This document shows, one piece after another, positions 3,087 through 62,699 of a DNA stretch of 64,000 nucleotides (its first letter is position 1; each line of letters opens with the position of its first letter). Location: the NCBI GenBank assembly GCA_964638425.1, contig CAZWYM010000002.1, positions 2,547-66,546 of the forward strand, in the 5' to 3' direction. The notes beneath the pieces were generated by a model. It saw nothing but the letters and a program-made list of their open reading frames with translations, was not told where the DNA came from and ran no database searches. Source of the stretch: an uncultured Candidatus Saccharibacteria bacterium (GTDB lineage Bacteria > Patescibacteriota > Minisyncoccia > Phycocordibacterales > UBA918). The position numbers were made by a program, and so were the translations under genes.

Positions 3087-3146
3087 ATAGAAAGTTTTAT
3101 CGTATTCAATTACTTAGTCTTCTTCTCTGATTCCTTTTGGAGGGGA

Positions 3147-3235
3147 AGGGTCAAGTTGCTAATTCGCTACGCTTATAAGTAAGCACTTCCTCCCCGGACT
3201 CGCCACTTTTGCATTAGTAATAGCAAAAGTATGGC
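3147..3235 (-). repeat. R1 structured-repeat copy H (sense on the minus strand, 3' of rplE)
   Basis: ttgctaattcgctacgcttataagtaagcacttcctccccggactcgcc-[acttttgc attagtaat agcaaaagt]-atggctccgtctc. Confidence 0.6.
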
Positions 3236-3289
3236 TCCGTCTCTTTCCATTGCCGAACGAGAAACTGTTCTCATTCTAAAAATAGTAAA

Positions 3290-3823
3290 CTATTTTTGCA
3301 ATGGCAAGCCAATATGTCGTAAGAATGCTTCTGCTTCCTTCTTTGTCTTTGCTGTTGTTACGATAGTGATTCCAAAACCAAACACATCTTTGATGTCTTC
3401 GTCAGCTGTTTCTGGGAAAATAGTATGTTCCTTAATACCAAGTGTGTAGTTCCCCATTTCATCGATAGCACTTACCTTGAGTCCTCGGAAGTCTCGTGTT
3501 TGTGGAAGTGAGAGATGAATGAGCTTGTGGAGGAAGTCGTGCATTCGTGGACCACGGAGTGTTGCTTGGTATCCAATGATTTCACCTTCACGAAGTTTGA
3601 ATGAAGCAATTGATTGCTTCGCTGGTCGCGGAGCTGCCTTTTGACCAGTAATTTGCGCAAGTCGATTCTGAATAAGCGCAATCTTTTGCTTATCTTGAAT
3701 TTTTCCAACACCAGTACCAACCACAACCTTCACGATGCGTGGCGCTTGCATTTTATTCGTGTATCCAAGCTCTCCCTTGAGTGCTTCGTACGTTCCGTTT
3801 AATGTTTCTTTCATTGATTTCAT
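3290..3823 (-). CDS. rplE: 50S ribosomal protein L5
   Basis: 177-aa ORF with L5-like sequence ...IVKVVVGTGVG...GNYTLGIKEHTIFPE. Lies between L24 and the S14 side of the cluster. Confidence 0.9.
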   Translation of the reverse strand: MKSMKETLNGTYEALKGELGYTNKMQAPRIVKVVVGTGVGKIQDKQKIALIQNRLAQITGQKAAPRPAKQSIASFKLREGEIIGYQATLRGPRMHDFLHKLIHLSLPQTRDFRGLKVSAIDEMGNYTLGIKEHTIFPETADEDIKDVFGFGITIVTTAKTKKEAEAFLRHIGLPLQK

Positions 3824-8980: not shown

Positions 8981-9174
8981 TCTACTTCCTTTCAATGAAC
9001 AATATTGAAAATATTATAACATATATTTTGAATAAAGCAAAAATACCCCAAGCGGGGGGTATTTTCTTTATGCATGATTCTTTTAATATACAGCTTGGGT
9101 CTCAAAATCTATTTTGAATAAGATTTTGAGACAGACTCAGAAAATATAATCGCTACGCTCTTTATTTTCTGGCC

Positions 9175-9270
9175 ACATGGTTCCGTCTTGGTTCTCGATA
9201 CGTACCTACCTTGAGGCAGGTACTAGAGAATAAAAAATACCTCGCATATGCGAGGTATTTTTTATTCTAC
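9175..9270 (-). repeat. R2 repeat copy 1 (two tandem hairpins, one a 44-bp palindrome at 9226-9269)
   Basis: About 90% identical to 14679-14793 and 15015-15133: acatggttccgtcttggttctcgatacgtacct..aggcaggtactagagaataaaaaatacctcgcatatgcgaggtattttttattct. Confidence 0.85.
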
Positions 9271-9274
9271 CTAC

Positions 9275-9392
9275 TTCGTCACGAATTGCTAAATAAAATA
9301 GCCACCTTGCGGTGGCTATTTTATTAATCATTCGCGACCCCGCCTCGCGGTGCGCCTCATTTTGAATGAGGCTCACAACGCTCCGGCTTGGC
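9275..9392 (-). repeat. R1 structured-repeat copy G (sense on the minus strand), with an extra hairpin at 9291-9325
   Basis: Contains ...tcgcgaccccgcctcgcgg-[gcctcattttgaatgaggc]-caacgctccggc, homologous to copies C, D and E. Confidence 0.7.
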
Positions 9393-9427
9393 GGACTGAA
9401 AATACATATGTATTTCCCTAACGTCCG

Positions 9428-9617
9428 CCACCCATAATCTTTCCTGGCTTGCGACGGGAAACAATGAATGTGTTTGAGTACTTCTTTGGACTTCGTGTCT
9501 TTTGACCCTTTCCAGTTGGACGTCCTTGCTTTGTTCGAGCATGTCGGTGTCCTCGTGGTGCGCGTCCTTCTCCTCCTCCGTATGGATGGTCTACTGCGTT
9601 TCGTGCACTTCCTCGTG
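9428..9617 (-). pseudogene. duplicated 3' fragment of rplB (last ~62 codons plus stop and 7 nt), no start codon
   Basis: Identical to 15135-15324 except 2 mismatches in ataatct versus attattt. The plus-strand track ORFs 9468-9662 and 15175-15375 translate identically over this stretch. Confidence 0.85.
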
Positions 9618-14678: not shown

Positions 14679-14793
14679 CTCCGCTCCGTGCGACATGGTT
14701 CCGTCTTGGTTCTCGATACGTACCTGCCTCAAGGCAGGTACTAGAGAATAAAAAATACCTCGCATATGCGAGGTATTTTTTATTCTCTATCGA
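14679..14793 (-). repeat. R2 repeat copy 2 (46-bp perfect palindrome at 14744-14788)
   Basis: See R2 copy 1. Ends with tattctctatcga, which equals the last codons plus stop of rplB. Confidence 0.85.
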
Positions 14794-14799
14794 CCACGT

Positions 14800-14895
14800 C
14801 ACGAGTTACTAAATTCGCTTCGCTCATTAAGTACTCGCGACCCCACCTCGCTCGTTTTTGTCTCCTTATGGTCGACAAAACATCGCTCCGGTTTG
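14800..14895 (-). repeat. R1 structured-repeat copy C (sense on the minus strand)
   Basis: The reverse complement reads aaccggagcgatg-[ttttgtc gaccataaggaga gacaaaa]-aacgagcgag-gtggggtcgcgagta-cttaatgagcgaagcgaatttag. Confidence 0.8.
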
Positions 14896-15014
14896 TAAGC
14901 AGGTCGGGAGCAAAGCCTTTTGTATCTACCGACTTCGTCACTGGTTTCTAAGTAAAATAATTGCAGAGCAATCATTTCGCTAAGAACCATCGACCCCGAC
15001 TCACCTGTCGTACT

Positions 15015-15133
15015 CGCTCCGCTCCGTGCGACATGGTTCCGTCTTGGTTCTCGATACGTAACTGCCTCAAGGCAGTTACTAGAGAATAAAAAATACCTCA
15101 CACATGTGAGGTATTTTTTATTCTCTATCGAGA
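15015..15133 (-). repeat. R2 repeat copy 3, immediately 3' of rplB; its palindrome at 15081-15126 overlaps the rplB TAG stop at 15125-15127
   Basis: Same structure as copies 1 and 2, with compensatory substitutions: cctcGcaTatgCgagg becomes cctcAcaCatgTgagg, and gtacCtgcc..ggcagGtac becomes gtaActgcc..ggcagTtac. Confidence 0.85.
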
Positions 15134-15985
15134 ACCACCCATTATTTTTCCTGGCTTGCGACGGGAAACAATGAATGTGTTTGAGTACTTCTTTGGACTT
15201 CGTGTCTTTTGACCCTTTCCAGTTGGACGTCCTTGCTTTGTTCGAGCATGTCGGTGTCCTCGTGGTGCGCGTCCTTCTCCTCCTCCGTATGGATGGTCTA
15301 CTGCGTTTCGTGCACTTCCTCGTGTCTTTGGTCGCACACCTCGTTGTCGTGCGCGCCCTGCCTTACCGAGAGTAATCAAACGATATTCTTCGTTTGAAAC
15401 TTCACCGATAGTTGCCCAACAGGTGCTGAGAATTCGTCGAATTTCAGATGAAGGCATCTTCACGAGTGTGTACCCTGCGTCTTGTGCAACAACTTCAGCC
15501 TTATTTCCTGCAGACCGCGCGATTCGTGCACCTGCTCCTGGCTTAAGCTCGATTGCAAAAACAAAGGTACCTACTGGGATATTCCCAAGCGGTAGACGAT
15601 TTCCTGACTTTGGCTTTGCTGTTTCTGAAACAATAAATTCATCTCCCTTTACCATCCCCTTTGGTGCGAGAACGTATCTTCGTTCACCATCCTTAAAGAG
15701 AACGAGTGCGATGAATCCTGAACGGAATGGATCGTATTCAATTGATTCTACAATCGCAGGAATATCCTTTTTATTGTAGACAAAATCTACTTCACGGTAT
15801 GTACGCTTATGTCCACCTCCTCGGTAGAGATTTGTAGTACGTCCTGTGCTATTTCGTCCTCCAGTACTTCTTCGTCCTTGTGTAAGACTCTTGAGTGGGG
15901 CGTTTTTCTTTGTCGTGAGGACTTCTCGGTATGACACTACGGTCATTCCACGTCGTCCCGCTGATGTTGGTTTATATTTTTTCAC
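15125..15985 (-). CDS. rplB: 50S ribosomal protein L2; apparent GTG start
   Basis: 286 aa; ...GRNSTGRTTNLYRGGGHKRTYR...HPYGGGEGR... are L2 signatures. Confidence 0.9.
   Translation of the reverse strand: MKKYKPTSAGRRGMTVVSYREVLTTKKNAPLKSLTQGRRSTGGRNSTGRTTNLYRGGGHKRTYREVDFVYNKKDIPAIVESIEYDPFRSGFIALVLFKDGERRYVLAPKGMVKGDEFIVSETAKPKSGNRLPLGNIPVGTFVFAIELKPGAGARIARSAGNKAEVVAQDAGYTLVKMPSSEIRRILSTCWATIGEVSNEEYRLITLGKAGRARQRGVRPKTRGSARNAVDHPYGGGEGRAPRGHRHARTKQGRPTGKGQKTRSPKKYSNTFIVSRRKPGKIMGGSR
15135..15324 (-). repeat. native rplB 3' segment that forms the 190-bp direct repeat with 9428-9617
   Basis: Direct comparison of the two stretches. Confidence 0.9.
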
Positions 15986-21627: not shown

Positions 21628-21649
21628 CTAGGCTTCCTCAATATCTTTC

Positions 21650-21745
21650 AGCGTCAGGTTTCTAAACTCACCACGTTCGTTAAGAACCTCCTGCCCGGCC
21701 TCACGGTTTCGTCTCCTTGCGGTCGACGAAACATCGTTCCGGCTT
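21650..21745 (-). repeat. R1 structured-repeat copy D (sense on the minus strand, 3' of fusA)
   Basis: The reverse complement reads agccggaacgatg-[tttcgtc gaccgcaaggaga gacgaaa]-ccgtgag-gccgggcaggaggtt-cttaacgaacgtggtgagtttagaaacctgacg. Confidence 0.8.
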
Positions 21746-21888
21746 TTGTCAAGGACTGAAGAAGCTTACGCTTCTTCTTCAATATCCTTCCCTCCTTACA
21801 GGAGCAGTACACCTTGTGGATATTTTGTTTCGTTAGGATTCACAAAATACCTCACAAGCTCGGTAAAAGATATATCGAAGCAATAACT

Positions 21889-34028: not shown

Positions 34029-34062
34029 CTCTCAACCGCATCACTCTGTGATGCGGTTTTTT
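34029..34062 (+). terminator. second identical copy of the ccgcatcactctgtgatgcggttttttt hairpin
   Basis: Exact repeat. Confidence 0.7.
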
Positions 34063-34077
34063 TAAATGATATCGACT

Positions 34078-34250
34078 AGCGTCAGGTTTGTAATTCGCTA
34101 CGCTCATATTCCGACTTACAGTCGCAGTACACCTTTCGCAGAAATTGCTCAAGGTCTTGCGAAGCTCAAAGTATTCGCTTCTCACCTCCCCGGTCTCATT
34201 CATTTCGCCATTATGAATAGGCGAAATATCATTCCGACTCATAGTCGATA
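34078..34250 (-). repeat. R1 structured-repeat copy F (longer variant, sense on the minus strand, 3' of recJ)
   Basis: cgtcaggtttgtaattcgctacgctcat ... ctcacctccccggtctc-[atttcgcc attatgaatag ggcgaaat]-atcattccgactcat. Confidence 0.65.
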
Positions 34251-34276
34251 TCATTTAAAAAATAAAACAATTCATT

Positions 34277-35998
34277 TTAAATGACATCGACTATGCGTAA
34301 TCTTGTCTCAAGTCTTCCCATAAAAAATGAACGCTCAATATGTGCAAGGAGGGTAACTGATTTCCCCGCCTCGGGGAGAACAGCAAAATCAGTCGGCAGT
34401 TTAAAAAAACAAATAGCATCAAACCGTTTGTTCTTTGTAATGATTTTAAGTTTTGTGTGATTTTTTGTTTTCCCAAAAATCGAAACATCTTGCGGAATCA
34501 CATCTTGTATTTCAAAAAGTGGCTTTGGGTTCCCAATACCAAATGGAGCGAGCGAATCGAGTGTTCGGAGAAGTCCGTCATCAACATCGTCCATGGTAAT
34601 TCGCGCGTCTATTGGTTGTCCCTGACTCGGAACAAACGCATCAGTCTTGAGTGATTCGTAAGCGGTAATGAGTGCTTCTGAAAGTGTGTGTATCCCCTCA
34701 TGACTCACCGAGAAACCTCCCGACGCGTGATGCCCCCCGAATGTGAGAAATGAGTCTGGGGTTGCCTCCATGAGTTCAACAATACTAATAGTCCCTTCAC
34801 TACGACAGGAACCTTTGATGATTCCTTTACCGTCGCGACCCCAGAGAAACGCGGGGCGATTAAATTCTTCCGCAAGAGAGTTCGCAACGAGTCCAACGAG
34901 TGACGGACGCCATTCTGGATTTCCCATGACAATGACGTGAGGGAGTTCTTCAAGAGCGCTCATCCGTTTCTTTGCCTCTTTAACCATACTTGCTACAACC
35001 CCCTTTCTTTCATTGTTAAGTTTTTCGAGATGGAGAACATGTCCTCCAGCCTCAACTTCGTCACGTGTGCGTAACATATGAAAAGCGTTCTCAGGAGTAT
35101 CCATGCGTGACGCTGCATTAATGCGTGGGGCGATGGTAAAACCGATATCATCTTCAGTGAGATGCCTCTGGCTACCACCCGCCTTTCGTAAAAGATGTTG
35201 CAACCCAGGTCGCCCAGACTTCCGCAACACCGACAAACCAAAACGAGCGAGGACCCGATTCTCGTTGGTGAGAGGAACCATATCGGCGACTGTTGCAAGG
35301 GCAACGAGGTCGAGCCACCACTTCTCCATACCATCCTTCAGTGTAATCTGCCCGCTTATTTTCCCTTTTTCAAGAATTGCCTGAACGAGCTTAAACGCAA
35401 CAGTTGTTCCACAAATACCATTAAACGGGTACGCATCATCTCGTTTTGGGTTGATGACAGCAAAGGCGGGAGGGAGCGTTTCACTCGGTTCGTGGTGATC
35501 GGTAACAATAACATCAATACCTAGTGCATTTGCAGCAGAAACAGCATCGTGGTCAGTAATCCCACAATCAACCGTAATAATGAGTGATGCGTTTCGCTCC
35601 TTAAACTGTGGAACGGAATCTGCATTAAATCCGTACCCTTCTTCATGTCGATGGGGAATATAATTTTCAAAATTTAGATACCCGATTGCAGTAAAGAAGT
35701 CATGGAGAAGTACTCCTCCAGGAATTCCATCACAATCATAATCGGTATAAATGACGATATGCTCGTCATTAAGAAACGCTCTCAAGATTCTTTCGGTCGC
35801 CTTCTCCATATCGGTAAGGAGAAAGGGGCTATGCAAATCTGTCTCATAGTTCGGAGCCATGAAAGCGCGCGCTCGTACTCCGTCGGTGATTCCTCTATTA
35901 AAGAGAAGTTGCTGTGTGAGTGGTGTGTACTCAGTAAGTTCTTGCGCAACAGACTCCGGGAGTGTTGGCGAGAGAGTGTATGTCCGCGATGTCGCCAT
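34277..35998 (-). CDS. recJ: single-stranded-DNA-specific exonuclease RecJ (DHH/DHHA1)
   Basis: 573 aa; DYDCDGI, DHH-type motifs and a C-terminal OB-like region. Confidence 0.8.
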   Translation of the reverse strand: MATSRTYTLSPTLPESVAQELTEYTPLTQQLLFNRGITDGVRARAFMAPNYETDLHSPFLLTDMEKATERILRAFLNDEHIVIYTDYDCDGIPGGVLLHDFFTAIGYLNFENYIPHRHEEGYGFNADSVPQFKERNASLIITVDCGITDHDAVSAANALGIDVIVTDHHEPSETLPPAFAVINPKRDDAYPFNGICGTTVAFKLVQAILEKGKISGQITLKDGMEKWWLDLVALATVADMVPLTNENRVLARFGLSVLRKSGRPGLQHLLRKAGGSQRHLTEDDIGFTIAPRINAASRMDTPENAFHMLRTRDEVEAGGHVLHLEKLNNERKGVVASMVKEAKKRMSALEELPHVIVMGNPEWRPSLVGLVANSLAEEFNRPAFLWGRDGKGIIKGSCRSEGTISIVELMEATPDSFLTFGGHHASGGFSVSHEGIHTLSEALITAYESLKTDAFVPSQGQPIDARITMDDVDDGLLRTLDSLAPFGIGNPKPLFEIQDVIPQDVSIFGKTKNHTKLKIITKNKRFDAICFFKLPTDFAVLPEAGKSVTLLAHIERSFFMGRLETRLRIVDVI

Positions 35999-36960: not shown

Positions 36961-37137
36961 AATTGTATTTCCATATTTATAAAATAATGGATTTGAGGGC
37001 AGTTCGAGGTGAGAAGCGAATACTTGAAGCTTCGCAAGACCTTGAGCGAATTCTGCGAAAGGTGTACAGCTTCTGTAAGAAGAGAGCTCACTCGCGTCTC
37101 TTTAACTTCAAAGCAACAAAGAAATGCTTTACATGCA

Positions 37138-51987: not shown

Positions 51988-52590
51988 ATGCAATCAAAAG
52001 AATCACAAATAAATAGCTACCTCGTCCCAATGGTTATCGAAAAGACCCAGGCTGGAGAACGTGCTTTCGACATATTTTCTCGACTCCTCAAAGAACGTAT
52101 CATTTTCGTTACTGGAGGTATAGATGACCACATGGCAAATCTTATTGTTGCGCAACTTCTCTTCCTTGAAGCTGAAGACCCAAAAAAGGATATTTTCATG
52201 TATGTTAATTCCCCAGGAGGTTCTGTAAGTGCAGGACTTGGTATTGTCGACACTATGAATCACATCAAGCCTGATGTCGCTACTGTTTGTGTTGGTCTCG
52301 CTGCATCAATGGGTTCTATCATCCTCTCACAGGGAGCGAAAGGAAAGCGAAGTATCCTGCCTAATGCAGAAGTTATGATTCACCAACCATGGGGAGGAAC
52401 ACAGGGCCAAGCGACTGATATTGAAATTACCGCTCGCCATATTCTCCGTACACGAGATACCCTCAACAAAATGCTCGCTAAGGCAGCAGGTAAGCCACTT
52501 GCGCAAATTGAAAAAGACACTGACCGAGATTTCTTCATGACTGCTGAAGAAGCAAAGAAATATGGCTTAGTCGATACTATTCTAAAATAG
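51988..52590 (+). CDS. clpP: ATP-dependent Clp protease proteolytic subunit
   Basis: ...[18 protein letters not shown]...AASMGS...MIHQP... The Ser-His-Asp triad context is present. Start trimmed to the ATG at 51988. Confidence 0.9.
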
Positions 52591-52600
52591 TATCGACTAA

Positions 52601-52695
52601 GAGCCGGAGCGATGTGAACCCTATTAATAATGGGTGAACCAGCGAGGCCGGGGAGAAACCACTTATGAACGAAGTGAATTAGTGAGTTGACCCTG
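52601..52695 (+). ncRNA. R1 structured-repeat copy A (plus sense, 3' of clpP); putative ncRNA or 3'UTR element
   Basis: gagccggagcgatgtga-[accc tattaataat gggt]-gaaccagcgag-gccggggagaaacc-acttatgaacgaagtgaattag. It is flanked by the clpP stop-overlapping palindrome (52559-52600) and by the terminator at 52746-52775. Confidence 0.6.
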
Positions 52696-52745
52696 GTCGA
52701 TACCATCCTTAAGTAGTCTATGCCTTTTTAAGCTCAAACAACGTC

Positions 52746-52775
52746 CCTCTTCGGGACGTTGTTTTGTATTCGACA
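52746..52775 (+). terminator. hairpin aaacaacgtccc-tcttc-gggacgttgtttt
   Basis: Perfect stem plus T tract upstream of rny. Confidence 0.6.
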
Positions 52776-52859
52776 CACCCCTATTATTCTGTTACTGTAT
52801 GAAAGTCGACACAGAAATGAAAGACTTCGACATTGTCCACTATAAGTAATCAGAAAAGT

Positions 52860-54383
52860 ATGCCAATCGAAATGATTTTTGCCCTCGTGGCAGGAGTACT
52901 CGGCATCGCTTTAGGATATTATCTCAGATACATACACGCACTCAGTAAGAAAGAATCAATTGAAATCTCAATTAAAGAACGTGTTGTTGAAGCAGAAGAA
53001 AAGGCTATAAAGATAATTGAACGAGCAGAAGCAAAGTCCGAGACGCTCGAAAAAGAGAAAAAACAAGAGTTTAAAGAACTTGAAGAGAAGTTAGGAAAGA
53101 CCGAGGAACGACTTATCCGTAAGGAGGAACTACTCGATAAACGCCAGATTGACGTCGATTCACAAATTGAATCAGTTCGAGAGAAGATTGAGCAAATAAA
53201 AGACATCAAAACACGGCTCGATGAGCGGGAAAAGAGTATTGATGTACAAATCGAAACCGTTGCAGGCCTTTCAAAGGATGATGCATATGAACGACTCGTG
53301 AGTATCGTTGAAAAGGAGCGAGAACTCGATATTCTTGGACGACTCCAAAAACTGCAAGTTCGCGGTGACGAACAATTTGATGAACAAGCAAAAAATATCC
53401 TTACCTCAGCAATTCACCGCATTGGGAACACCCTTCGCGTTGATATCATGAGTTCAACCATTGAGCTCCCGAGTGATGAGATGAAAGGAAAAATTATTGG
53501 AAAGGAAGGAAGAAATGTCCGTGCATTTGAGCGCGCAACGGGAGTAGATGTACTCATTGATGATACTCCTGGGCACATTACCCTCTCATCATTTGACCCT
53601 GTTCGTCGAGAAATAGCTCGAGTTGCTCTCGAAACACTTCTCAGTGACGGGCGTATCCAGCCTGCGAAAATTGAAGAAGTTGTCGAAAAAGCACGAGCAG
53701 AGGTGGGCACCATCGTAAAGAAGATGGGAGAAAAGGCTGCGTATGAAGCAGGTGTTGCAAATCTACATCCAGATCTCGTGAAGATTCTTGGACGACTCCA
53801 CTTCCGCACAAGTTACGGACAGAATGTTCTCTGGCACTCTGTAGAAATGGCACACATTGCTGCCATCATTGCAGAAGAAATTGGTGCAGACGTTGCTGTC
53901 GCTCGCGCTGGCGCTCTCCTTCATGACATTGGTAAGACAGTGAGTCAGGAAGTACAGGGTACTCACGTAGAAATTGGTATCCGCATCCTCGAGAAATACG
54001 ATGTTGATGAAAAAGTCATCATCGCAATGCGTGCACACCACGAGGAATATCCATATGACACCCCTGAGTCAATCATCGTACAAGTAGCTGACGCTATTTC
54101 AGGAGGTCGCCCAGGTGCACGTCGTGATTCAATCGAGAATTACATTAAACGACTTAAAGAGCTTGAAGATCTTGCTCTCTCAATACCTGGTGTTGAGAAG
54201 GCGTTTGCCATCCAAGCAGGACGTGAGGTACGTGTCATCGTCAATCCAGAAAAGATAACCGACTTAGAAGCGCTCAATTTGGCGCGAAGTCTCGCAACCG
54301 ATATTGAGGAAAAGCTTAGATATCCTGGAGAAATTAAGGTGAATGTTATACGGGAATCTCGTGCTATAGAGTACGCCCGGTAA
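52860..54383 (+). CDS. rny: ribonuclease Y
   Basis: N-terminal TM, coiled coil, KH (GKIIGKEGRNVRAFE) and HD (LLHDIGK) domains. Start trimmed to the ATG at 52860. Confidence 0.8.
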   Translation: MPIEMIFALVAGVLGIALGYYLRYIHALSKKESIEISIKERVVEAEEKAIKIIERAEAKSETLEKEKKQEFKELEEKLGKTEERLIRKEELLDKRQIDVDSQIESVREKIEQIKDIKTRLDEREKSIDVQIETVAGLSKDDAYERLVSIVEKERELDILGRLQKLQVRGDEQFDEQAKNILTSAIHRIGNTLRVDIMSSTIELPSDEMKGKIIGKEGRNVRAFERATGVDVLIDDTPGHITLSSFDPVRREIARVALETLLSDGRIQPAKIEEVVEKARAEVGTIVKKMGEKAAYEAGVANLHPDLVKILGRLHFRTSYGQNVLWHSVEMAHIAAIIAEEIGADVAVARAGALLHDIGKTVSQEVQGTHVEIGIRILEKYDVDEKVIIAMRAHHEEYPYDTPESIIVQVADAISGGRPGARRDSIENYIKRLKELEDLALSIPGVEKAFAIQAGREVRVIVNPEKITDLEALNLARSLATDIEEKLRYPGEIKVNVIRESRAIEYAR

Positions 54384-54396
54384 GCCACCTAGCTTA

Positions 54397-54439
54397 AGAA
54401 TAAAGCGCTATTACTATAGGTAATAGCGCTTTATTCTTT
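54397..54439 (+). terminator. hairpin aagaataaagcgctattac-tatag-gtaatagcgctttattctt
   Basis: Perfect 19-bp stem after rny. Confidence 0.6.
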
Positions 54440-54640
54440 ATTCCTTACAGGAACCCTCCACTCATTGGATTTTATTCATTCTTCATAAAATCTCAATGAG
54501 TCTTGCGAAAGTGTCCCGCACTTTCTCACCTCGTATCTGAGCCCCTTTTGTGTTTACCTTAGAAATTTTTGCAGAGAAACTTCCATGCAAAGGGCGAGTG
54601 GAAAAAATTACAACACACATAATTACACTCCGGTAGTATA

Positions 54641-54668
54641 TTGCACAACTGAAACCGTACTATATAAT
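54641..54668 (+). promoter_or_regulatory. sigma70-like promoter TTGCAC-16-TATAAT upstream of hup
   Basis: -35 at 54641-54646, -10 at 54663-54668. The leader to hup would be about 140 nt. Confidence 0.4.
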
Positions 54669-54806
54669 TGTTTGTAGCCACATTTTGGCATCACGTGCAT
54701 TGCACAAGTAGGACTTACGCATTTGGACGCAGTTCCAAAAAAGAAATGCCCCAAACGCGCAAGTCCTAAAATCATTAATCGCCATTAGTACATCATTTCA
54801 TATACT

Positions 54807-55079
54807 ATGAACAAGGCAGACATAATTGATAAAGTACACGAGGTTGTAGGAGGAACTCGAGCAGATGCAGAACGAGCAGTTGAAACAGCGATCGATTGTA
54901 TCGTTGATTCTTTGAAGAAAGGAAAGGAAGTATCAATCGCAGGATTGGGTATTTTCTCTTCAAAGACTCGAAACGCTCGAACAGGACGTAACCCACGTAC
55001 TGGTGAATCAATCGATATCCCAGCTATGCGAGTTCCAAAGTTCCGTGCAGCAAAGGCACTTAAGGATGCAGTAAAATAA
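54807..55079 (+). CDS. hup: DNA-binding protein HU
   Basis: 90 aa; ...GLGIFSSKTRNARTGRNPRTGESIDIPAMRVPKFRAAKALKDAV. Confidence 0.85.
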   Translation: MNKADIIDKVHEVVGGTRADAERAVETAIDCIVDSLKKGKEVSIAGLGIFSSKTRNARTGRNPRTGESIDIPAMRVPKFRAAKALKDAVK

Positions 55080-55092
55080 ATCTCTCCTTTAT

Positions 55093-55128
55093 AAAAAATC
55101 CCGCAAGCAAATGCTTGCGGGATTTTTT
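55093..55128 (+). terminator. hairpin aaaaaatcccgcaagc-aaat-gcttgcgggatttttt
   Basis: Perfect stem plus T tract after hup. Confidence 0.7.
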
Positions 55129-55337
55129 ATATCCACATCTACTCCACATATTTCAATTTTTATAACTAGTGATACAATAATGGAGTAGCGGAGGTATTAA
55201 CTTGGTTTCATGTACACCAAGTCAACGTTACATACAAAGAGGTATAGAATGTTTAGTTCTATGTCTCACCACAACAAAAGCCCCACGCGAGGGGCTTTTG
55301 TGTTGTATAAAATTAGAAATTTTATACAACACAAAAG

Positions 55338-55430
55338 AAACGAGCGATGTGAGGGACTATTCATAATGTCCCGAACCAGCGAGTTCGGGTAGGTAAATCT
55401 TATGAGCGAAGCGAATTAGATTTGGACGCT
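55338..55430 (+). ncRNA. R1 structured-repeat copy B (plus sense, 3' of hup), sandwiched between two long hairpins
   Basis: aaacgagcgatgtga-[gggac tattcataat gtccc]-gaaccagcgag-ttcgggtaggtaaat-cttatgagcgaagcgaattag. Stem nucleotides are compensatory relative to copy A. Confidence 0.6.
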
Positions 55431-55616
55431 TTGTGTTTTAGAGTGATTCAATATCACTCTAAAACACAAAAGCCGACCTTGTCAGATGTTTTTCCGCAAA
55501 GCAGGAAAAAGATCAACAAGGTGTACCGTCCCTGTAAGGGAATTTTGTGTTGGGGGCTTGCGCAGGTAGACTCCCCTTGATACGCTCAACTAAGGTATAC
55601 ACTACGAGGAGTTCTT

Positions 55617-55832
55617 ATGGAAAACGCATGTGAAAATCCAGCACAATCTATTATTGATTGGATCAAAAGTCCTGAAGGAGAAAAACGATTTAAGGAAGCA
55701 ATGGCGGAAGTAAAGAAAGTGAGCACGGAGCTCAATGAAGCAAGGATGCTCACGCCAGAGCTACTCAACGCACCTATGGGTCCTCCAGGTGGCAGTTGGT
55801 CAAACTATTGGGCGGTCAGAAGAACCGCCTAG
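55617..55832 (+). CDS. small hypothetical protein (71 aa)
   Basis: SD aggag before the ATG. Terminator at 55840-55876. Confidence 0.35.
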   Translation: MENACENPAQSIIDWIKSPEGEKRFKEAMAEVKKVSTELNEARMLTPELLNAPMGPPGGSWSNYWAVRRTA

Positions 55833-55839
55833 CACTTAC

Positions 55840-55876
55840 AATCCCCTATCAAGAATTACTTGATAGGGGATTTTTT
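55840..55876 (+). terminator. hairpin aatcccctatcaag-aattact-tgataggggatttttt
   Basis: Perfect stem plus T tract. Confidence 0.65.
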
Positions 55877-56053
55877 AAATCGAAACTTACAGTTTCAGTA
55901 CACCTTGCGGGTACTTTGCTACATTACATTCGCAAAGATACCACGCAAGGTCTTCGATTCCTCAAGTACGATGCCCCGCGGAATCGTCCCGCTTTTTGAC
56001 CAATTTTAATTATGACTGAAAGGAATTAGAAAAATGGAAATACTCTTGTGGTG

Positions 56054-56130
56054 CTAATTCACTACGTTCATAAGAACGCTGGACGCGACTCGCAGGCCCA
56101 GAGGGTCCCCTGCTCCGTCGTTCGATTCCT
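56054..56130 (-). repeat. R1 structured-repeat copy I (sense on the minus strand, 3' of tRNA-Gly-UCC)
   Basis: The reverse complement ends ...cagcgttcttatgaacgtagtgaattagcac. The 5' end is degenerate and includes the inverted copy of the tRNA 3' end. Confidence 0.55.
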
Positions 56131-56153
56131 CTTGCTCGCTACAAATACGCAAC

Positions 56154-56187
56154 AACGCCGACACTTTCGTGTCGGCGTTGGCGTTTT
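56154..56187 (-). terminator. hairpin aacgccgacac-tttc-gtgtcggcgtt plus T tract, immediately 3' of tRNA-Gly
   Basis: Perfect 11-bp stem. Confidence 0.6.
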
Positions 56188-56189
56188 TG

Positions 56190-56260
56190 TGCGAGCAAGA
56201 GGAATCGAACCCCCATCCACTGCTTGGAAGGCAGTTGTTTTACCACTAAACTATGCTCGC
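56190..56260 (-). tRNA. tRNA-Gly (anticodon UCC), no encoded CCA
   Basis: Folded by hand: acceptor gcgagca/tgctcgc, D arm gttt/aaac, anticodon stem actgc/gcagt with loop cTTCCaa, T loop ttcgatt. Confidence 0.8.
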
Positions 56261-56345
56261 GGTATTGATAAGTCCCGTACTTATCCCGGATGATTCTATC
56301 ATAAACCGTTCCTCAATTAAAGCCCATGTTACAATCAGAGTCGAT

Positions 56346-57497
56346 ATGGGAATTTTTGACATTTTTACCAACTTTTTAACGAGTGTATTCATTGGGTATC
56401 TCGCATTTACCAATACCCTCGCGGAGAAAATCGAATCGTACCTTCCAGAACAAGATGCGGTAGAAATTGCAACTGCTCCCGAAGTCCCTCCGGCTGAACA
56501 AACGCTCTCAAAGCTCACTGAGCTCTCTAAAACCCTTGCACACGGCGTCCCCCGCATACTCCTTGAGCATGCTGAGTACCAACGCGCAGCAATTTATGCG
56601 AGTACCCGTGATGATGAGCCTGTCGATCTTTCAGGAAAATCACTCGACGCTATCGTTCGTGACGCCCTCGTAAATATTTACTGCCAATACAAAACAGATA
56701 GATACATCCGGACAACAACCGGTACTGGATTCTTTATAAATCAGAAAGGGGTCATCATTACCAATGCACACGTTGCTCAATTCCTACTCCTAAAAGACGC
56801 AAAGAGTTCTGTTAATGATGTTGAGTGTGTTATTCGTTCAGGCGAACCTGCAGAAGCAAAATATAATGCTGAGTTACTCTACATATCTCCAACATGGATT
56901 TTTGAGAACGCAGACCTTATCACCGACGAATCTCCACGAGGTACCGGAGAACGAGACTACGCACTACTCTATGTCTCAAAGACTCTCGATGGGTCACCTC
57001 TTCCTGCACACTTCCCCGTCATTCCTGTTGCAGTAGACCTTCTTTCACGAGAGAGCGCGGGCGCAAAAGTCCTTACTGCTGGATACCCTGCTGAGGCACT
57101 CATGCGAAACGGGGCTGATGCAAAACTTAATCCCGTTCTCGCTGCAACTACTGTAGGAACACTCTATACCTTCGGGAGTAACTACGCTGATATCTTTTCA
57201 ATCTCTGAATCACCGGTCGGCGAGCAAGGGGCTTCTGGTGGACCTATCGTGGCTGAGAAAGATTCTACTGCTATTGGCCTTATCGTAACAAAGGGTGACG
57301 AGGAGACCGAAGGAGCGCACAGCCTCAGAGCTCTCACCCTTTCATATATCAATAGAACAATGACTGAAGAGACAGGATTCTCACTCATACAAAATATGCA
57401 AGGCGATATTGCCTACCGTGCTGGTATCTTTAAAGAGGCAATGGTTCCCTTTCTCGCTCAAATCCTCGCAGACGAACTAAGTACAGGAAACGATTAA
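56346..57497 (+). CDS. trypsin-like (S1/S1C) serine protease with an N-terminal TM segment
   Basis: GTGFFI..TNAHV (His), GASGGPIV (Ser). Start placed at the ATG at 56346 so it does not overlap the tRNA. Confidence 0.6.
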   Translation: MGIFDIFTNFLTSVFIGYLAFTNTLAEKIESYLPEQDAVEIATAPEVPPAEQTLSKLTELSKTLAHGVPRILLEHAEYQRAAIYASTRDDEPVDLSGKSLDAIVRDALVNIYCQYKTDRYIRTTTGTGFFINQKGVIITNAHVAQFLLLKDAKSSVNDVECVIRSGEPAEAKYNAELLYISPTWIFENADLITDESPRGTGERDYALLYVSKTLDGSPLPAHFPVIPVAVDLLSRESAGAKVLTAGYPAEALMRNGADAKLNPVLAATTVGTLYTFGSNYADIFSISESPVGEQGASGGPIVAEKDSTAIGLIVTKGDEETEGAHSLRALTLSYINRTMTEETGFSLIQNMQGDIAYRAGIFKEAMVPFLAQILADELSTGND

Positions 57498-57528
57498 AAA
57501 AACCGCACGCAGAGCGTGCGGTTTTTTT
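57496..57528. terminator. hairpin aaaaaaaccgcacgc-aga-gcgtgcggttttttt (bidirectional)
   Basis: Perfect stem with A7/T7 flanks. Confidence 0.7.
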
Positions 57529-57544
57529 AATCGTTGGTCATATA

Positions 57545-58906
57545 TTATCCTTCAAATATTGGAGTTGCTACTGGGGCTTCCGAAACTTCCTCTGTACTCG
57601 TTGCGGACTCTTCGGGTTGCGCTTGCTCTTCGGTTGGATTCTCTTCAGTATTTTCAGACTCACTCTTAACACGAATGTGTTGCGTCATTGCTTCAATATC
57701 AGTTGCAAGAGCACGTGCTTCTATAAGGTATGATTCTGCTTCTTCCACACGAGGTACTGAGAGCGTCGTTGATGCGTTTGTAAGGAGACCATCGATCTGG
57801 AGAAGCCCTTCTGCAACCTTGTCATGAAGTCCATCATCTCCTTCCATTGCCTCAATTCTGAGACCTACCTCAGTCGCAATATTTCCTATTTCACTGTATT
57901 CCTTTTGAGCGAGTACTACTCGTTCCTCTGTACTGAGTATGACAGGTACTAGGGTTTCTAGTGTTACTGATTCTCGAATATCAATATCCGTCATAAATAC
58001 AATAAGTTTTTGGATGAGACCAAGCGTTGTTGTTAAGTCAGTAACGGCTGCCTCAGCTTCACCTTCATGCTTCCCTTTTGCTTCAAGGATGAGTCGATCA
58101 ATATCACTCAATCTTCGCTCAATATCATGAATTTCCTCACTGCTTGCAGAAAGTTTAATAGTTTCAAACAATTCATACACTCGTGTTGTCTCTAGCTCAA
58201 CCTTAGCAACAAGTCCATCAAAGGACGGCGCACTAGTCTCTTGGTTCGAAACAACCTCCTCTCGAGCCTCATTCACCACAGTTAGGAGTCCTTCGATGAG
58301 AGAAGCGTTCTCAGTACTTTCTTCTCCACCAAGCACCGCTGATTGCACCTCGAGTGACGAATTGAATGCAATCTCAGCGATTGCAGCTCCATCAGCATCC
58401 TGCGCACGAAGTTCACTGAGTCCGTGTTGCACAGCTTGCGTATGTTCCTTCACTGTCGCTGCAAGTTGTGTTTTTACCTCTTCGGTAAGCTTCCCTTCAC
58501 TTGAAAGTACTCGAGCCTCTGCAATACGACGTTCCATTAATTTTGTATCAAATTCAATCTTCTCATATGGAGTTGACGCAAGTTTTTCTTGGATAGCTTC
58601 ATTAAAGCCAGTCTTCACAAGATAGAGTGGGTCACCTGGAACAGACTTTTCAGCGATAAATGGAGCAATAATTAAAATAGCAACAAGAAGTCCTCCTGCA
58701 ATACGCGCATGAAATGCATTAAAATGAACCGCAATAAAAGATTCTGAAGGGATACTTTCGCGAAGGTCAGCTTGCGTCAAAATTTGCTTTGGAAGTGGAT
58801 GATACTCCATGTACGACAAAACACGTTCACGAAGCTCGCGTCGTTCAGAAACTTTCAGGTTTATTTTTTCTGCGTATTTTTTTAAATCAGTATCAAAAGA
58901 TTTCAT
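57545..58906 (-). CDS. putative anti-sigma factor (cytoplasmic N-domain, single TM, acidic extracytoplasmic domain)
   Basis: Overlaps the upstream ECF sigma gene by 4 nt. Membrane topology inferred from the hydrophobic segment LLVAILIIAPFIA. Confidence 0.45.
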   Translation of the reverse strand: MKSFDTDLKKYAEKINLKVSERRELRERVLSYMEYHPLPKQILTQADLRESIPSESFIAVHFNAFHARIAGGLLVAILIIAPFIAEKSVPGDPLYLVKTGFNEAIQEKLASTPYEKIEFDTKLMERRIAEARVLSSEGKLTEEVKTQLAATVKEHTQAVQHGLSELRAQDADGAAIAEIAFNSSLEVQSAVLGGEESTENASLIEGLLTVVNEAREEVVSNQETSAPSFDGLVAKVELETTRVYELFETIKLSASSEEIHDIERRLSDIDRLILEAKGKHEGEAEAAVTDLTTTLGLIQKLIVFMTDIDIRESVTLETLVPVILSTEERVVLAQKEYSEIGNIATEVGLRIEAMEGDDGLHDKVAEGLLQIDGLLTNASTTLSVPRVEEAESYLIEARALATDIEAMTQHIRVKSESENTEENPTEEQAQPEESATSTEEVSEAPVATPIFEG

Positions 58907-60541: not shown

Positions 60542-60885
60542 TTGCGGATTATAACAGACTTGAGTTATTCAGTCTCGCATTTTTTGCATTAGGGTGGTAT
60601 TATCGTGGTCACGAAATGAGGAATTCCTGGTTTCGTAAGTGAGGAGGTGTATCTTCGCCTATTGGCTCGATACATTCCCTCCCCGCTCAAGGTGTGTGAA
60701 ATCGGGGTGTATGTTCCATACAACCCTTCTTCGCTCGGACATAGTGGTAGTGTACGCGGTTTGGGGTTCTTTAAGGTGTCTTTGTTACTGATTCTCGTCC
60801 TTGTCTGGGTCGGGGTGTAAGCAAGTAGCTTTCACCCCCGAGCTCAAAGATTAAATGCAAAATAATTTGCGCTTATCTTCTCGCT

Positions 60886-60956
60886 CGGGGTGTAGCATAG
60901 TGGTAGTGTACGCGGTTTGGGACCGTGTGGTCCGGGTTCGATTCCCGGCTCCCCGA
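60886..60956 (+). tRNA. tRNA-Pro (anticodon UGG); acceptor stem has one U-U mismatch; no encoded CCA
   Basis: Hand fold: cggggtg-ta-gcat-agtggta-gtgt-a-cgcgg-tTTGGga-ccgtg-tggt-ccggg-ttcgatt-cccgg-ctccccg-a. Confidence 0.6.
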
Positions 60957-61072
60957 CCCAGATCAGGACGAAGACACCTTAAAGAACCAACAATCTTGGA
61001 GATTGTTGCGGTTTTCGAAGAAAAGTGTGGTCCGGGTCTTGCGATAGTCACCCAGACTATCTCACCCGTTCT

Positions 61073-61126
61073 CCCCGACAAATACGAAAAGACCGCCAAC
61101 TGGCGGTCTTTTCGTATTTGTCGGGG
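61073..61126. terminator. very long perfect hairpin ccccgacaaatacgaaaagaccgcc-aac-ggcggtcttttcgtatttgtcgggg (25-bp stem)
   Basis: Read directly from the sequence. Confidence 0.55.
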
Positions 61127-61320
61127 AATCGAAAATGTCTGAGTATATCGCAACAAGCCTGTGGCGAAGTGAAAAGGGAAAGATTCCCAATGTATGTGGC
61201 TATTTCTATATTACTAGCCACATTACTAAGTAATGTCCTTTATAACAGTGACATTCTCAAAAATAGGAGTATTATCGTGCACAGATTTGTTTCTCAAATA
61301 TTTTGACTAAGGGGGATCTG

Positions 61321-61991: not shown

Positions 61992-62281
61992 GTCGCTTCA
62001 TGTGGAACTATATAACAGAAGATACATTCATGCCAGTGTTTCACGTGAAACAATAACAAATATAATATATTGCGATATAATCGTTGATCTGTATGTTATT
62101 AGCCATTTTTTAAGGACATATTTATTAAAATTTTTGTCCTTTATACACATATCAACTCGTTTATCCCCAGTTATCCACCATGTGGATTTCTAGTAGAGGA
62201 TTTGTCTTTTATGGGGTAGGGGGATCGAAAGCTTACTTGAACAAAATCGAAACCTGACGGTTACTAATAACCAGTACTTGG

Positions 62282-62375
62282 TGTCAGGTTTCTAAGTTCG
62301 TTACACTCACTAAGAACCTCCTACCCGACCTCGCGGTTTCGCCATAAATTATAGGCGAAACATCGCTCCGGTTCA
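62282..62375 (-). repeat. R1 structured-repeat copy E (sense on the minus strand, 3' of tRNA-Gly-GCC), with an extra 3' hairpin at 62249-62290
   Basis: The reverse complement reads aaccggagcgatg-[tttcgcc tataatttatg ggcgaaa]-ccgcgag-gtcgggtaggaggtt-cttagtgagtgtaacgaacttagaaacctgaca. Confidence 0.8.
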
Positions 62376-62383
62376 CAAAACTA

Positions 62384-62411
62384 AAAAACACTGCGTAGGC
62401 AGTGTTTTTCT
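62384..62411 (-). terminator. hairpin aaaaaacactgc-gtag-gcagtgtttttc 3' of tRNA-Gly-GCC
   Basis: Perfect stem with A/T tracts. Confidence 0.6.
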
Positions 62412-62421
62412 TTACGTTTTG

Positions 62422-62492: not shown

Positions 62493-62699
62493 ATGTATTA
62501 CTTCCGGAAGAAGTGACTAGGATTATAGTATTTATATGAGGGGAGTGCAATGTGGAAGGAGGGACTCGTCCCGCTTTTTCTAATTCGTTTCACTCATAAG
62601 TGCCCCCTGCCCGGAGGGACTCGAATTCTACAAATTCTGTTCAGGTTGTATGAAATTTATTCAAAATTTCGACAACCACTTCGGGTCCCTACGCATACA

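Follow-up and report, generated by a model that had tools for sequence, protein, structure and literature searches.

Introduction

Target-primed insertion of the kind known from short and long interspersed elements (SINE/LINE) concerns short, structured, non-coding and non-autonomous sequences that are related to transfer RNA (tRNA), are placed strand-specifically and are flanked by target-site duplications of variable length that preserve the target. In a 64,000-nucleotide stretch of DNA from an uncultured Candidatus Saccharibacteria bacterium (contig CAZWYM010000002.1; the whole stretch is called the window below), we found a strand-specific, structured element of ~95–110 nt, named R1, that shares these traits, including variable target-site duplications around a sense-strand insert. 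R1 departs from the SINE/LINE pattern in its bacterial host, in having neither a poly-A or other 3' tail nor a known reverse-transcriptase partner, and in an extra inverted copy of the target at its 5' junction; moreover, its tRNA-like part comes from the target and not from the element. No reverse transcriptase was present among the window proteins or the 25 commonest protein families of the sampled R1 neighbourhoods. Throughout, a denotes the native target, a'' a direct copy of a, and a' the reverse complement of a.

Other described systems resemble R1 in part. In CTX phages and IMEX elements the order is site, spacer, inverted site, element, site, as in R1, and a stem of the inverted arms encloses the element. 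The CTX arms are dif-like, borne by the element and directed to one fixed target, whereas the R1 arms copy whatever target was hit; no relation to Xer or dif was seen for R1, and the match is one of geometry alone. Genomic islands in tRNA genes duplicate the 3' part of the tRNA from the T-loop and leave the tRNA intact, as do the direct repeats of R1 at ~20 loci. In contrast to such islands, the R1 insert is only ~150–250 nt long, has no integrase, uses many tRNA species as well as non-tRNA targets and has an inverted copy, and its repeat often continues beyond the tRNA and into the terminator. The REP/BIME, Correia, ERIC and RUP repeats are, like R1, abundant, transcribed and structured sequences of 3' untranslated regions (UTRs) that can form hairpins at mRNA ends. 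These families are limited to species or genera and have palindromes or terminal inverted repeats of their own, whereas R1 spans classes of a phylum and has target-derived flanks. Instead of the 20–40-nt palindrome with a 5' tetranucleotide and a RAYT that marks REP/BIME, R1 is a two-domain element of ~100 nt, and no Y1 transposase was seen among the window proteins or the 25 commonest families near R1. R1 also lacks the marks of a miniature inverted-repeat transposable element (MITE), namely terminal inverted repeats owned by the element, a duplication of fixed length and a related insertion sequence with a transposase, and its arrangement is more unusual than that of an ordinary MITE. Group IIC introns insert directionally at the 3' ends of transcription units and beside hairpins, as R1 does; unlike them, R1 is ~100 nt long, has no intron domains and no Rfam intron match, and duplicates its target. 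Finally, rRNA intervening sequences and tRNA-like 3' structures have a foreign stem-loop in place of a hairpin loop, with a long duplex that closes it, an arrangement also seen in R1. Such a long closing duplex could be a substrate of RNase III, RNase P or RNase Z. Unlike an rRNA intervening sequence, R1 does not lie inside a functional RNA.

Here we present evidence that R1 has repeatedly inserted at 3' ends of transcription units across Patescibacteria, and we consider it rather probable that the structured element was inserted together with one direct and one inverted copy of its target.

Results

The flanks of R1 follow one plan at many loci

Copies of R1 were detected first with a hidden Markov model (HMM) and then with a covariance model, in the window and in 8-kb samples of ~120 GTDB genomes. 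Flank statistics were computed for 57 full-length copies from the window and other Patescibacteria. The direct-repeat score compared the R1 3' flank (a 40-nt flank window) with the 300 nt upstream, and flanks permuted between loci served as control. All well-preserved copies read a–spacer–a'–R1–a'', and the same architecture was found at dozens of loci with different targets. The target a was native sequence, either a tRNA from the T-loop on, the last codons of recJ, clpP or rplB, or the T-tract of a terminator. The direct copy a'' was ~10 to more than 40 nt long and began 0–6 nt past R1. A 5–22-nt Watson-Crick complement of a formed a', which ended 2–6 nt ahead of R1 and paired either with a, giving long left hairpins, or with a'', giving a closing stem that we call P0. 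A sequence-only reading had reported direct flanks at copies A and D and had argued, from their likeness to target-site duplications, that R1 might be, or have been, mobile; the inverted copy a' and its closing stem with a'' were absent from that account.

A direct-repeat score of at least 10 was reached by 51% of the copies and 3.4% of the controls, a score of at least 12 by 44% and 0.9%, and a score of at least 18 by 28% and 0%. For the inverted repeat, 30% of the copies scored at least 8, against 4% of the controls. Perfect direct repeats of at least 40 nt were present at two loci (L109 and L135; the L numbers denote sampled loci and contigs), and the full repeat of L109 is 44 nt long. Tabulated in this way, the repeats stood far above permuted controls and chance similarity was not borne out; the proposed target duplications and mobility of R1 are upheld by these frequencies and by the empty sites in relatives described below.

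At 34 of the 57 copies (60%), a co-oriented tRNA ended no more than 200 nt upstream, with 14 amino-acid specificities represented; the chance expectation for such proximity, estimated from tRNA density, is below 1%. At tRNA loci a extended from the T-loop to the tRNA 3' end, often with the trailer and the terminator, a'' was a perfect direct copy of 13 to at least 40 nt, and P0 equalled the acceptor/T-stem helix of the neighbouring tRNA. At ~20 of these loci the repeat began within the T-loop, 17–21 nt short of the tRNA end, and the T-loop core tcgat is present in four targets outside tRNAs (clpP, recJ and two after rplB). At loci with a terminator between a and a', the entire a–trailer–terminator–trailer'–a' stretch forms one long hairpin. 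Since the duplication restores the end of the tRNA or of the reading frame, insertion into essential genes is tolerated.

Two other origins of the flanks were ruled out. One was that a' had been copied from the 5' strands of the tRNA itself, as in a degenerate tRNA duplicate; at G·U sites of the tRNA T-stem, 7 informative positions identified a' as the complement of the tRNA 3' strand and 1 as a copy of the 5' strands. The other was a purely RNA-level origin in which the right end of the duplication is always the 3' end of a transcript; in the recJ copy the duplication stops before the terminator. The CCA that would mark a mature tRNA was found after a'' only in L094, where it is ambiguous.

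The start of the tRNA duplication in the T-loop, which in Williams's 2002 classification is said to be a classic crossover site of integrases, would also fit a miniature integrative element, moved by a tRNA-targeting tyrosine integrase or by Xer acting on a folded hairpin as in the CTX phage. The repeats a and a'' would then be attL and attR cores, and a' the second arm of a folded attP. Many targets have TCGA-type palindromic cores, and the order at R1 loci is that found after folded CTX integration: with X for a target copy and X' for an inverted target copy, the folded phage single strand, once integrated, leaves X–spacer–X'–element–X. We regard this explanation as quite unlikely. The flanks match 14 tRNA specificities and several protein-gene ends, up to at least 40 nt and with unique trailers, and are therefore not sites borne by the element. 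Furthermore, the repeat length is highly variable, no integrase family was found in the window or among the 25 commonest families near R1, and no IMG/VR contig contained a full R1.

Related genomes have empty sites

The sequence-only reading had proposed that orthologous regions be compared for empty sites with a single flank, and such sites were seen at recJ. In three relatives (L159, L160 and L161; RecJ identity 77–80%) there is neither a' nor R1, and the recJ stop is followed directly by an A-tract and the terminator, matching the arrangement of the a'' copy in the window, where 19 nt of the recJ end lie on both sides of the R1 insertion. Downstream of hup, the metagenome contigs L002, L003 and L007 (~80% identity) have kept a small unit and its terminator (aaaagcccc...ggggcttttgtattg), with the terminator and ~100 nt upstream of it conserved, and have no R1 and neither of the hairpins that flank R1 in the window. 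At tRNA-Gly(UCC), the window and L002 carry R1 together with a second element, R2, and L003 and L007 carry only R2. The orthologous clpP site holds R1 in the window and in L003; the flanks track the last codons of their own gene (gtcgatac vs gtagacat), and the two copies are not each other's nearest relatives. These sequence comparisons support the view that R1 was gained or lost over the time that separates related species.

At 649–700 in L003, the clpP stop codon lies in a 15-bp palindrome of its own (ataatcttaaaataa/ttattttaagattat), and the inverted copy of the clpP end seems to be split by a terminator-like hairpin before R1. From this locus, simple hairpins look like a further, third type of inserted module.

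Successive insertions at locus B

Copy B of R1 lies downstream of hup and shows the flank plan twice in succession. The features of this locus are as follows.

55276..55299, + strand: intrinsic terminator aaaagcccc-acgcga-ggggctttt of the small conserved unit downstream of hup
55295..55337, + strand: left hairpin of copy B; a 55295–55313, loop tagaa 55314–55318, a' 55319–55337; 19 of 19 bp
55339..55431, + strand: R1 copy B core; covariance-model match of 75 bits, E = 3e-16
55428..55473, + strand: right hairpin of copy B; a'' (target core in direct orientation, with filler of unrelated sequence), loop, inverted copy
55474..55538, + strand: R2; a hairpin and then GTAC-N-CTGTAAG, flanked by the same target, inverted on one side and direct on the other
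55543..55552, + strand: fifth copy of the target core, ttttgtgttg, in direct orientation, directly 3' of R2

The two long hairpins around copy B and their shared arm ends, first pointed out in the sequence-only reading, are both present, with coordinates that were 2–12 nt off. The left hairpin (arms cttttgtgttgtataaaat at 55295–55313 and attttatacaacacaaaag at 55319–55337) indeed has the proposed 19-bp stem, and its true place is 55295–55337 rather than 55283–55330. For the right hairpin (arms gctttgtgttttagagtg at 55428–55445 and cactctaaaacacaaaagc at 55455–55473), existence was confirmed and the proposed 18-bp stem was not; it has 16 perfect bp, a 1-nt bulge from an extra A in the right arm and then 2 bp. 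Between them, the core of copy B consists of P1 (aac/gtt), a tandem G·A, P2 (gggac/gtccc), P4 and P3, with the conserved P3 tip ttatgagcgaagcgaattag at 55400–55419. The T-tract of the upstream terminator (55291–55306) is the target a of this copy.

Within the 64 kb there are 11 occurrences of the 8-mer TTTGTGTT or its complement, and five of these sites, which strictly alternate in orientation, lie within 255 nt (55297 +, 55328 −, 55430 +, 55463 −, 55544 +). The order at locus B is X (55295–), filler/loop, X' (–55337), R1, X (55428–), filler/loop, X' (–55473), R2, X (55543–), and repeated insertion into the same target, one event after another, accounts for the alternation of direct and inverted copies (X, X', R1, X, X', R2, X). 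It had been suggested that a single terminator hairpin was split or duplicated when R1 inserted. Contrary to this, the two hairpins have only their outer 8–11 nt in common, which stem from the T-tract of the upstream terminator, and neither their inner 8 bp nor their loops are related. Both are junctions composed of a target copy, unrelated self-complementary filler and an inverted target copy, and the right one, which doubles as the left junction of R2, belongs as much to R2 as to R1. The related idea that R1 inserts into terminator hairpins also failed, as the palindrome at the clpP stop and the hairpin at the recJ end are not ancestral terminators; in both the left arm is native coding sequence, and a' of recJ is absent from the empty sites of relatives.

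Upstream of these insertions, the unit of ~130 nt at 55165–55299(+) has a promoter-like tgatacaat ahead of it, ends in the intrinsic terminator and contains no open reading frame (ORF). It is ~81% conserved in L002, L003 and L007, has no Rfam match and is a candidate small RNA.

R1 copies elsewhere in the window

The window is chromosomal DNA of 43% G+C with the housekeeping genes tig, clpP, RNase Y, hup, fusA, tuf, rplB, recJ and nusA, type IV pilus genes and four tRNAs. Close RecJ homologues are labelled Minisyncoccia, Paceibacterota or Kaiserbacteria, which identifies the source as a Patescibacterium. One Logan contig matches the window at 100% over 6.3 kb, and several metagenome contigs (L002–L010) are syntenic with it at a DNA identity of ~79%. 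By HMM and covariance model the window holds 11–12 R1 copies, which adjoin unrelated genes. Outside locus B, the following features were annotated.

52566..52601, + strand: left hairpin of copy A; a (last clpP codons) 52566–52581, loop ctaa, a' 52586–52601; 16 of 16 bp
52603..52694, + strand: R1 copy A core; covariance-model match of 98 bits (the match, 52591–52700, takes in flanks)
52694..52723, + strand: a'' of copy A, a degenerate direct copy of the clpP end; ggtcgataccat (52695–52706) can pair with a'
21633..21790, − strand: copy D unit; a 21774–21790, partial a' 21751–21764, R1 core 21650–21743, a'' 21633–21649
34060..34293, − strand: recJ insertion; a 34275–34293, a' 34242–34260, R1 with nested R2 34079–34241, a'' 34060–34078, then the recJ terminator
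56036..56260, − strand: tRNA-Gly(UCC) locus; tRNA 56189–56260, terminator, a' 56120–56140, R1 copy 56036–56131
55878..55963, − strand: R2 at the tRNA-Gly(UCC) locus; flanks gaggaatcgaa (55953–55963) and tttcgatt (55878–55885)
62274..62384, − strand: R1 copy 48 nt downstream of tRNA-Gly(GCC)
62577–62615: partial R1 copy downstream of tRNA-Arg
14791..15055, − strand: two R1 copies (14930–15055 and 14791–14904) downstream of rplB
9271..9399, − strand: R1 copy, with a duplicated 204-nt stretch from the rplB 3' end (9414–9617) ahead of it
3141..3253, − strand: R1 copy in the 3' region of the gene at 3290–3823

The non-tRNA copies at recJ, clpP (copy A), the fusA region (copy D) and a terminator T-tract (copy B) all follow the common plan. 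The best-preserved non-tRNA insertion is that at recJ, where a consists of the last 16 nt of recJ and the stop, a and a'' are identical at 18 of 19 positions, and a' is a perfect 19-nt complement of a''. For copies A and D, imperfect direct flanks had been reported, at coordinates that were 3–4 nt off. Those of copy D are present at 21633–21649 and 21774–21790, with 15 of 17 positions identical and a score of 11. At copy A, where the C-terminus of clpP is native sequence, they lie 3 nt from the places first given, with tagtcgatactattc at 52568–52582 and tggtcgataccatcc at 52694–52708, and ungapped similarity reaches further (22 of 33; 52565–52597 vs 52691–52723). The direct-repeat score of copy A is only 8, which is not exceptional alone, and its flanks are backed by their position, by the extended similarity and by the orthologous locus L003. 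At tRNA-Gly(UCC), the last 20 nt of a' are the exact reverse complement of tRNA positions ~53–72.

Copy A is the case in which chance matches in AT-rich intergenic DNA come closest to explaining the flanks, since its exact repeat is 8 nt, a score that 22% of the permuted controls reached. For the family chance is hardly credible, given the 44% against 0.9% at a score of at least 12, the fixed position of the repeats beside R1, the five alternating 8-mer copies within 255 nt and the empty sites in relatives.

Two further observations concern the surroundings of these copies. The region 9161–9617 shares with 14679–15324 the 204-nt copy of the rplB 3' end (96% identical), the terminator, a hairpin, a' and the start of R1, and is placed downstream of a glycoside hydrolase gene; it arose either by segmental duplication or with an R1 copy that took its upstream flank along. 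In addition, a perfect 27-bp palindrome (61072–61127) lies just downstream of tRNA-Pro (60885–60960).

R1 is a conserved structured element of Patescibacteria

The window and the genome samples together contain at least ~60 full-length R1 copies, nearly all from Patescibacteria. The matches listed come from Saccharibacteria, Paceibacteria, Nomurabacteria, Kaiserbacteria and other groups, and the true distribution of R1 is wider than these matches. R1 folds into two hairpin domains on one junction. The first comprises a 3-bp P1, a bulged G with a tandem G·A, a 3-bp P1b, an AU bulge and a variable P2 hairpin, often with UAUUCNUAAUG as its loop. In the second, a P4 of 3–4 bp and an AGG/GAC internal loop lead to P3, which has a bulged A and a conserved 20-nt tip with the consensus UUAUGARYGNARYGAAUUAG; the tip contains a U·U pair, a tandem G·A, two covarying pairs and a GNA triloop.

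In the R1 alignment, 93.8% of the cells were paired compared to 33–41% with slid partners, 26 of 27 pairs had changed on both sides, and the covariation score was 0.381 against 0.03–0.06; the alignment from which the covariation was computed was itself fitted by the covariance model. R1 thus has what is expected of a structured RNA in general, compensatory changes that keep the helices on one strand. On the given strand, G·U exceeded A·C by 53:24 and the unpaired GGA/GA purines were near-invariant, and for these reasons the given strand is the one that folds. All 11 of 11 window copies scored for orientation were co-oriented with the upstream gene or tRNA, and the non-tRNA copies lie between stop codon and terminator, that is in the 3' UTR. 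Against dinucleotide shuffles, the fold z-scores were −8.9 for the B region and −6.0 for the A region.

When the window and 14 loci were searched against Rfam 15 at the gathering threshold, only tRNAs passed, and at E-value thresholds in three regions R1 gave only generic long-hairpin hits far below threshold. IMG/VR contained no full R1 and had the tip 20-mer in 28 contigs; a second R1-specific pattern gave 16 chance hits in IMG/VR, none of which the covariance model confirmed. A megablast search of 52000–58000 against a phage collection returned no match. No description of R1 was found in the literature by an exact-sequence search with the tip 20-mer and by keywords; a paper on tRNA group I introns deals with introns of the anticodon loop (PMC13011429). 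Resemblances to seven motifs (hammerhead, twister, hatchet, K-turn, sarcin-ricin, tetraloop-receptor and Y-RNA) were judged by eye and dropped, both on account of conserved nucleotides and bulge geometry that misfit and because Rfam models gave no match. R1 is an uncatalogued structured element conserved across classes of Patescibacteria.

In the 20 window proteins searched, only housekeeping Pfam families were found, and none was a reverse transcriptase, a transposase or an integrase. The 25 commonest families of 150 ORFs lying no more than 2.5 kb from R1 copies were likewise all housekeeping, in a survey that did not extend to whole genomes. With no mobility genes near it, R1 appears to be non-autonomous. 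We think it very unlikely that R1 is an ordinary repeat of the MITE or REP-like kind, moved by a transposase and equipped with terminal inverted repeats of the conventional sort and a target-site duplication of fixed length. Such repeats are short, non-coding, multi-copy, intergenic and repeat-flanked, as R1 is. The inverted flanks of R1 are locus-specific and equal to the local target, its direct repeats range from ~10 to more than 40 nt, no transposase or RAYT was found in the window or among the 25 commonest families near R1, and covariation of the RNA type and deep conservation are unlike species-specific families.

Conservation of sequence and structure throughout the phylum could also mean that R1 is not mobile DNA and instead a resident functional RNA module of 3' UTRs and tRNA trailers that has tRNA-like ends, for example a signal for processing or stability, or a switch in pairing. 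In that case a' would pair alternately with a and with a'' as a decoy, selection and gene conversion would have shaped the flanks, and absences would be deletions. R1 lies always on the sense strand and inside transcription units, and follows the same tRNA species (Gly, Leu, Lys and Pro) in distant genomes. P0 matches the acceptor/T helix of the tRNA beside it, and a side hairpin often stands where the tRNA body would be. In a'' the tRNA-derived part stays unchanged as the adjoining trailer diverges, and the hairpin of a and a' at copy A is perfect (16 of 16) though its a'' has drifted. On the other hand, selection on pairing leaves a perfect neutral duplication of at least 40 nt, with a trailer and a whole terminator (L109 and L135), unexplained. 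At the empty recJ sites the stop adjoins the terminator exactly as in the a'' of the window, the unrelated R2 has the same flank plan, and 11–12 copies adjoin unrelated genes in 64 kb. We therefore think a resident origin possible at best and the less expected outcome; residence as such fits domestication after insertion, so the two accounts compete mainly on origin.

R2, the tip module and CTGC hairpins

The R2 family consists of a long hairpin followed by GTAC-N4-7-CTGTAAG, has inverted and direct target-derived flanks like those of R1, and has no Rfam match. Its sites are 21795–21865(−), 34115–34190(−), 37006–37079(+), 55474–55538(+) and 55886–55952(−) in the window, ~3985–4060 in L003, and a site in L007. 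The X'...X flanks seen at locus B are also present at the tRNA-Gly and fusA loci, the latter site (~21795–21865) being just upstream of copy D, and at recJ an R2 is nested in the R1 copy.

The exact tip 20-mer TTATRARYGNARYGAATTAG occurs in the window at 55400–55419, 52663–52682, 3159–3178, 56054–56073 and 62580–62599, and also in loci L039–L158 and L011–L038. It is a separate module that is reused in at least three other scaffolds, none of them in Rfam. One, from Alphaproteobacteria/Sphingomonadales and some viral contigs, reads cccctctccc-N4-gggagaggg-stem-TIP-stem-ggtgagggg. Another, from Saccharibacteria and Paceibacteria, reads cgactttgttttc-TIP-gaaaacaagaagtactcttgtggtgcgac and is in tandem in L136. 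The third lies on the antisense strand directly against start codons in several Patescibacteria. Its recurrence in Alphaproteobacteria and viral contigs points to a widespread RNA module.

A GC-rich hairpin with a CTGC (or CTAC) loop is conserved 10–20 nt upstream of many R1 copies, for example at 62385–62415(−) in the window and in L053, L059, L109, L111 and L120. It often lies exactly between the acceptor-complement and T-stem-complement parts of a', and with it a'–R1–a'' looks like a tRNA whose body is cut down to one arm.

Discussion

Insertion of R1 along with two target copies, one direct and one inverted, could come about as follows. R1 and R2 would be non-autonomous cargo moved as a single strand, either RNA and its complementary DNA or single-stranded DNA, that enters a staggered break having a long 3' overhang. 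Priming across one overhang from the cargo's 3' end would produce a''. The other overhang would fold back, often on the native terminator hairpin, and self-primed fill-in would give a', which is then joined to the cargo. Because the fold-back would often use the native terminator, a–trailer–terminator–trailer'–a' would end up as one long hairpin. This specific fold-back route, read from sequence junctions, is a tentative proposal and may well be wrong in its details.

Several findings weigh against the insertion account and against this route within it. The route was reconstructed from junctions only, and no enzyme or intermediate was identified. Recognisable a, a' and a'' are missing at 3141–3253, at 62274–62384 and at several copies in L067, L113 and L118, which may reflect age or another route. 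In one subtype (L090, L113 and L128) the repeat begins just past the tRNA end and a' is only ~5 nt long, and in L002 a' (20 nt) exceeds the surviving direct repeat (13 nt). The conserved CTGC-loop hairpin splits many a' arms at the border of acceptor and T-stem, which simple copying does not predict. At several tRNA loci, such as L092 and L083, the 18 tRNA-derived nt of a'' are identical and the adjoining duplicated trailer has diverged, which implies selection or gene conversion and not just recent insertion. The presence of R1 on the same tRNA species in distant lineages could indicate ancient, vertically kept units. Finally, in a published survey group II introns are reported to be absent from Patescibacteria (PMC13011429), which leaves R1 with no obvious reverse-transcriptase partner.

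After insertion, copies would be transcribed in 3' UTRs and tRNA trailers, and their flanks would be kept at least partly by selection. Because the tRNA part of a'' is kept while the trailer decays, and because R1 is conserved phylum-wide, the copies appear to be functional once inserted. Judging from their sequences, possible roles are as 3'-end hairpins, as substrates of RNase III, P or Z, or as tRNA-like helices. It is conceivable, if rather doubtful, that R1, R2 and the CTGC-loop hairpin form an undescribed class of bacterial mobile RNA-like elements that are aimed at the T-loop region of tRNAs and at TCGAT sites, pass through a single-stranded intermediate and self-primed fold-back, and carry a tRNA-mimicking closing helix, as a counterpart of SINEs. 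If true, each copy would gain the acceptor/T-arm helix of a neighbouring tRNA, and tRNA-processing enzymes could act on it.

R1 has practical consequences as well. A contig of the same organism (L180, from Logan SRR12762296) ends 162 nt past recJ, inside the R1 insertion, and because of this R1 repeats can be said to break short-read metagenome assemblies; they can also create spurious ORFs. For the organisms themselves, R1 alone takes up ~2% of the window, though the genomes of Patescibacteria rank among the smallest of bacteria. If the flank architecture reflects the mechanism, it would allow DNA to be inserted into essential tRNA and protein genes without damage, and it would place long hairpins and tRNA-like helices at the ends of transcripts, where they would be likely to affect termination, RNA stability and tRNA processing.

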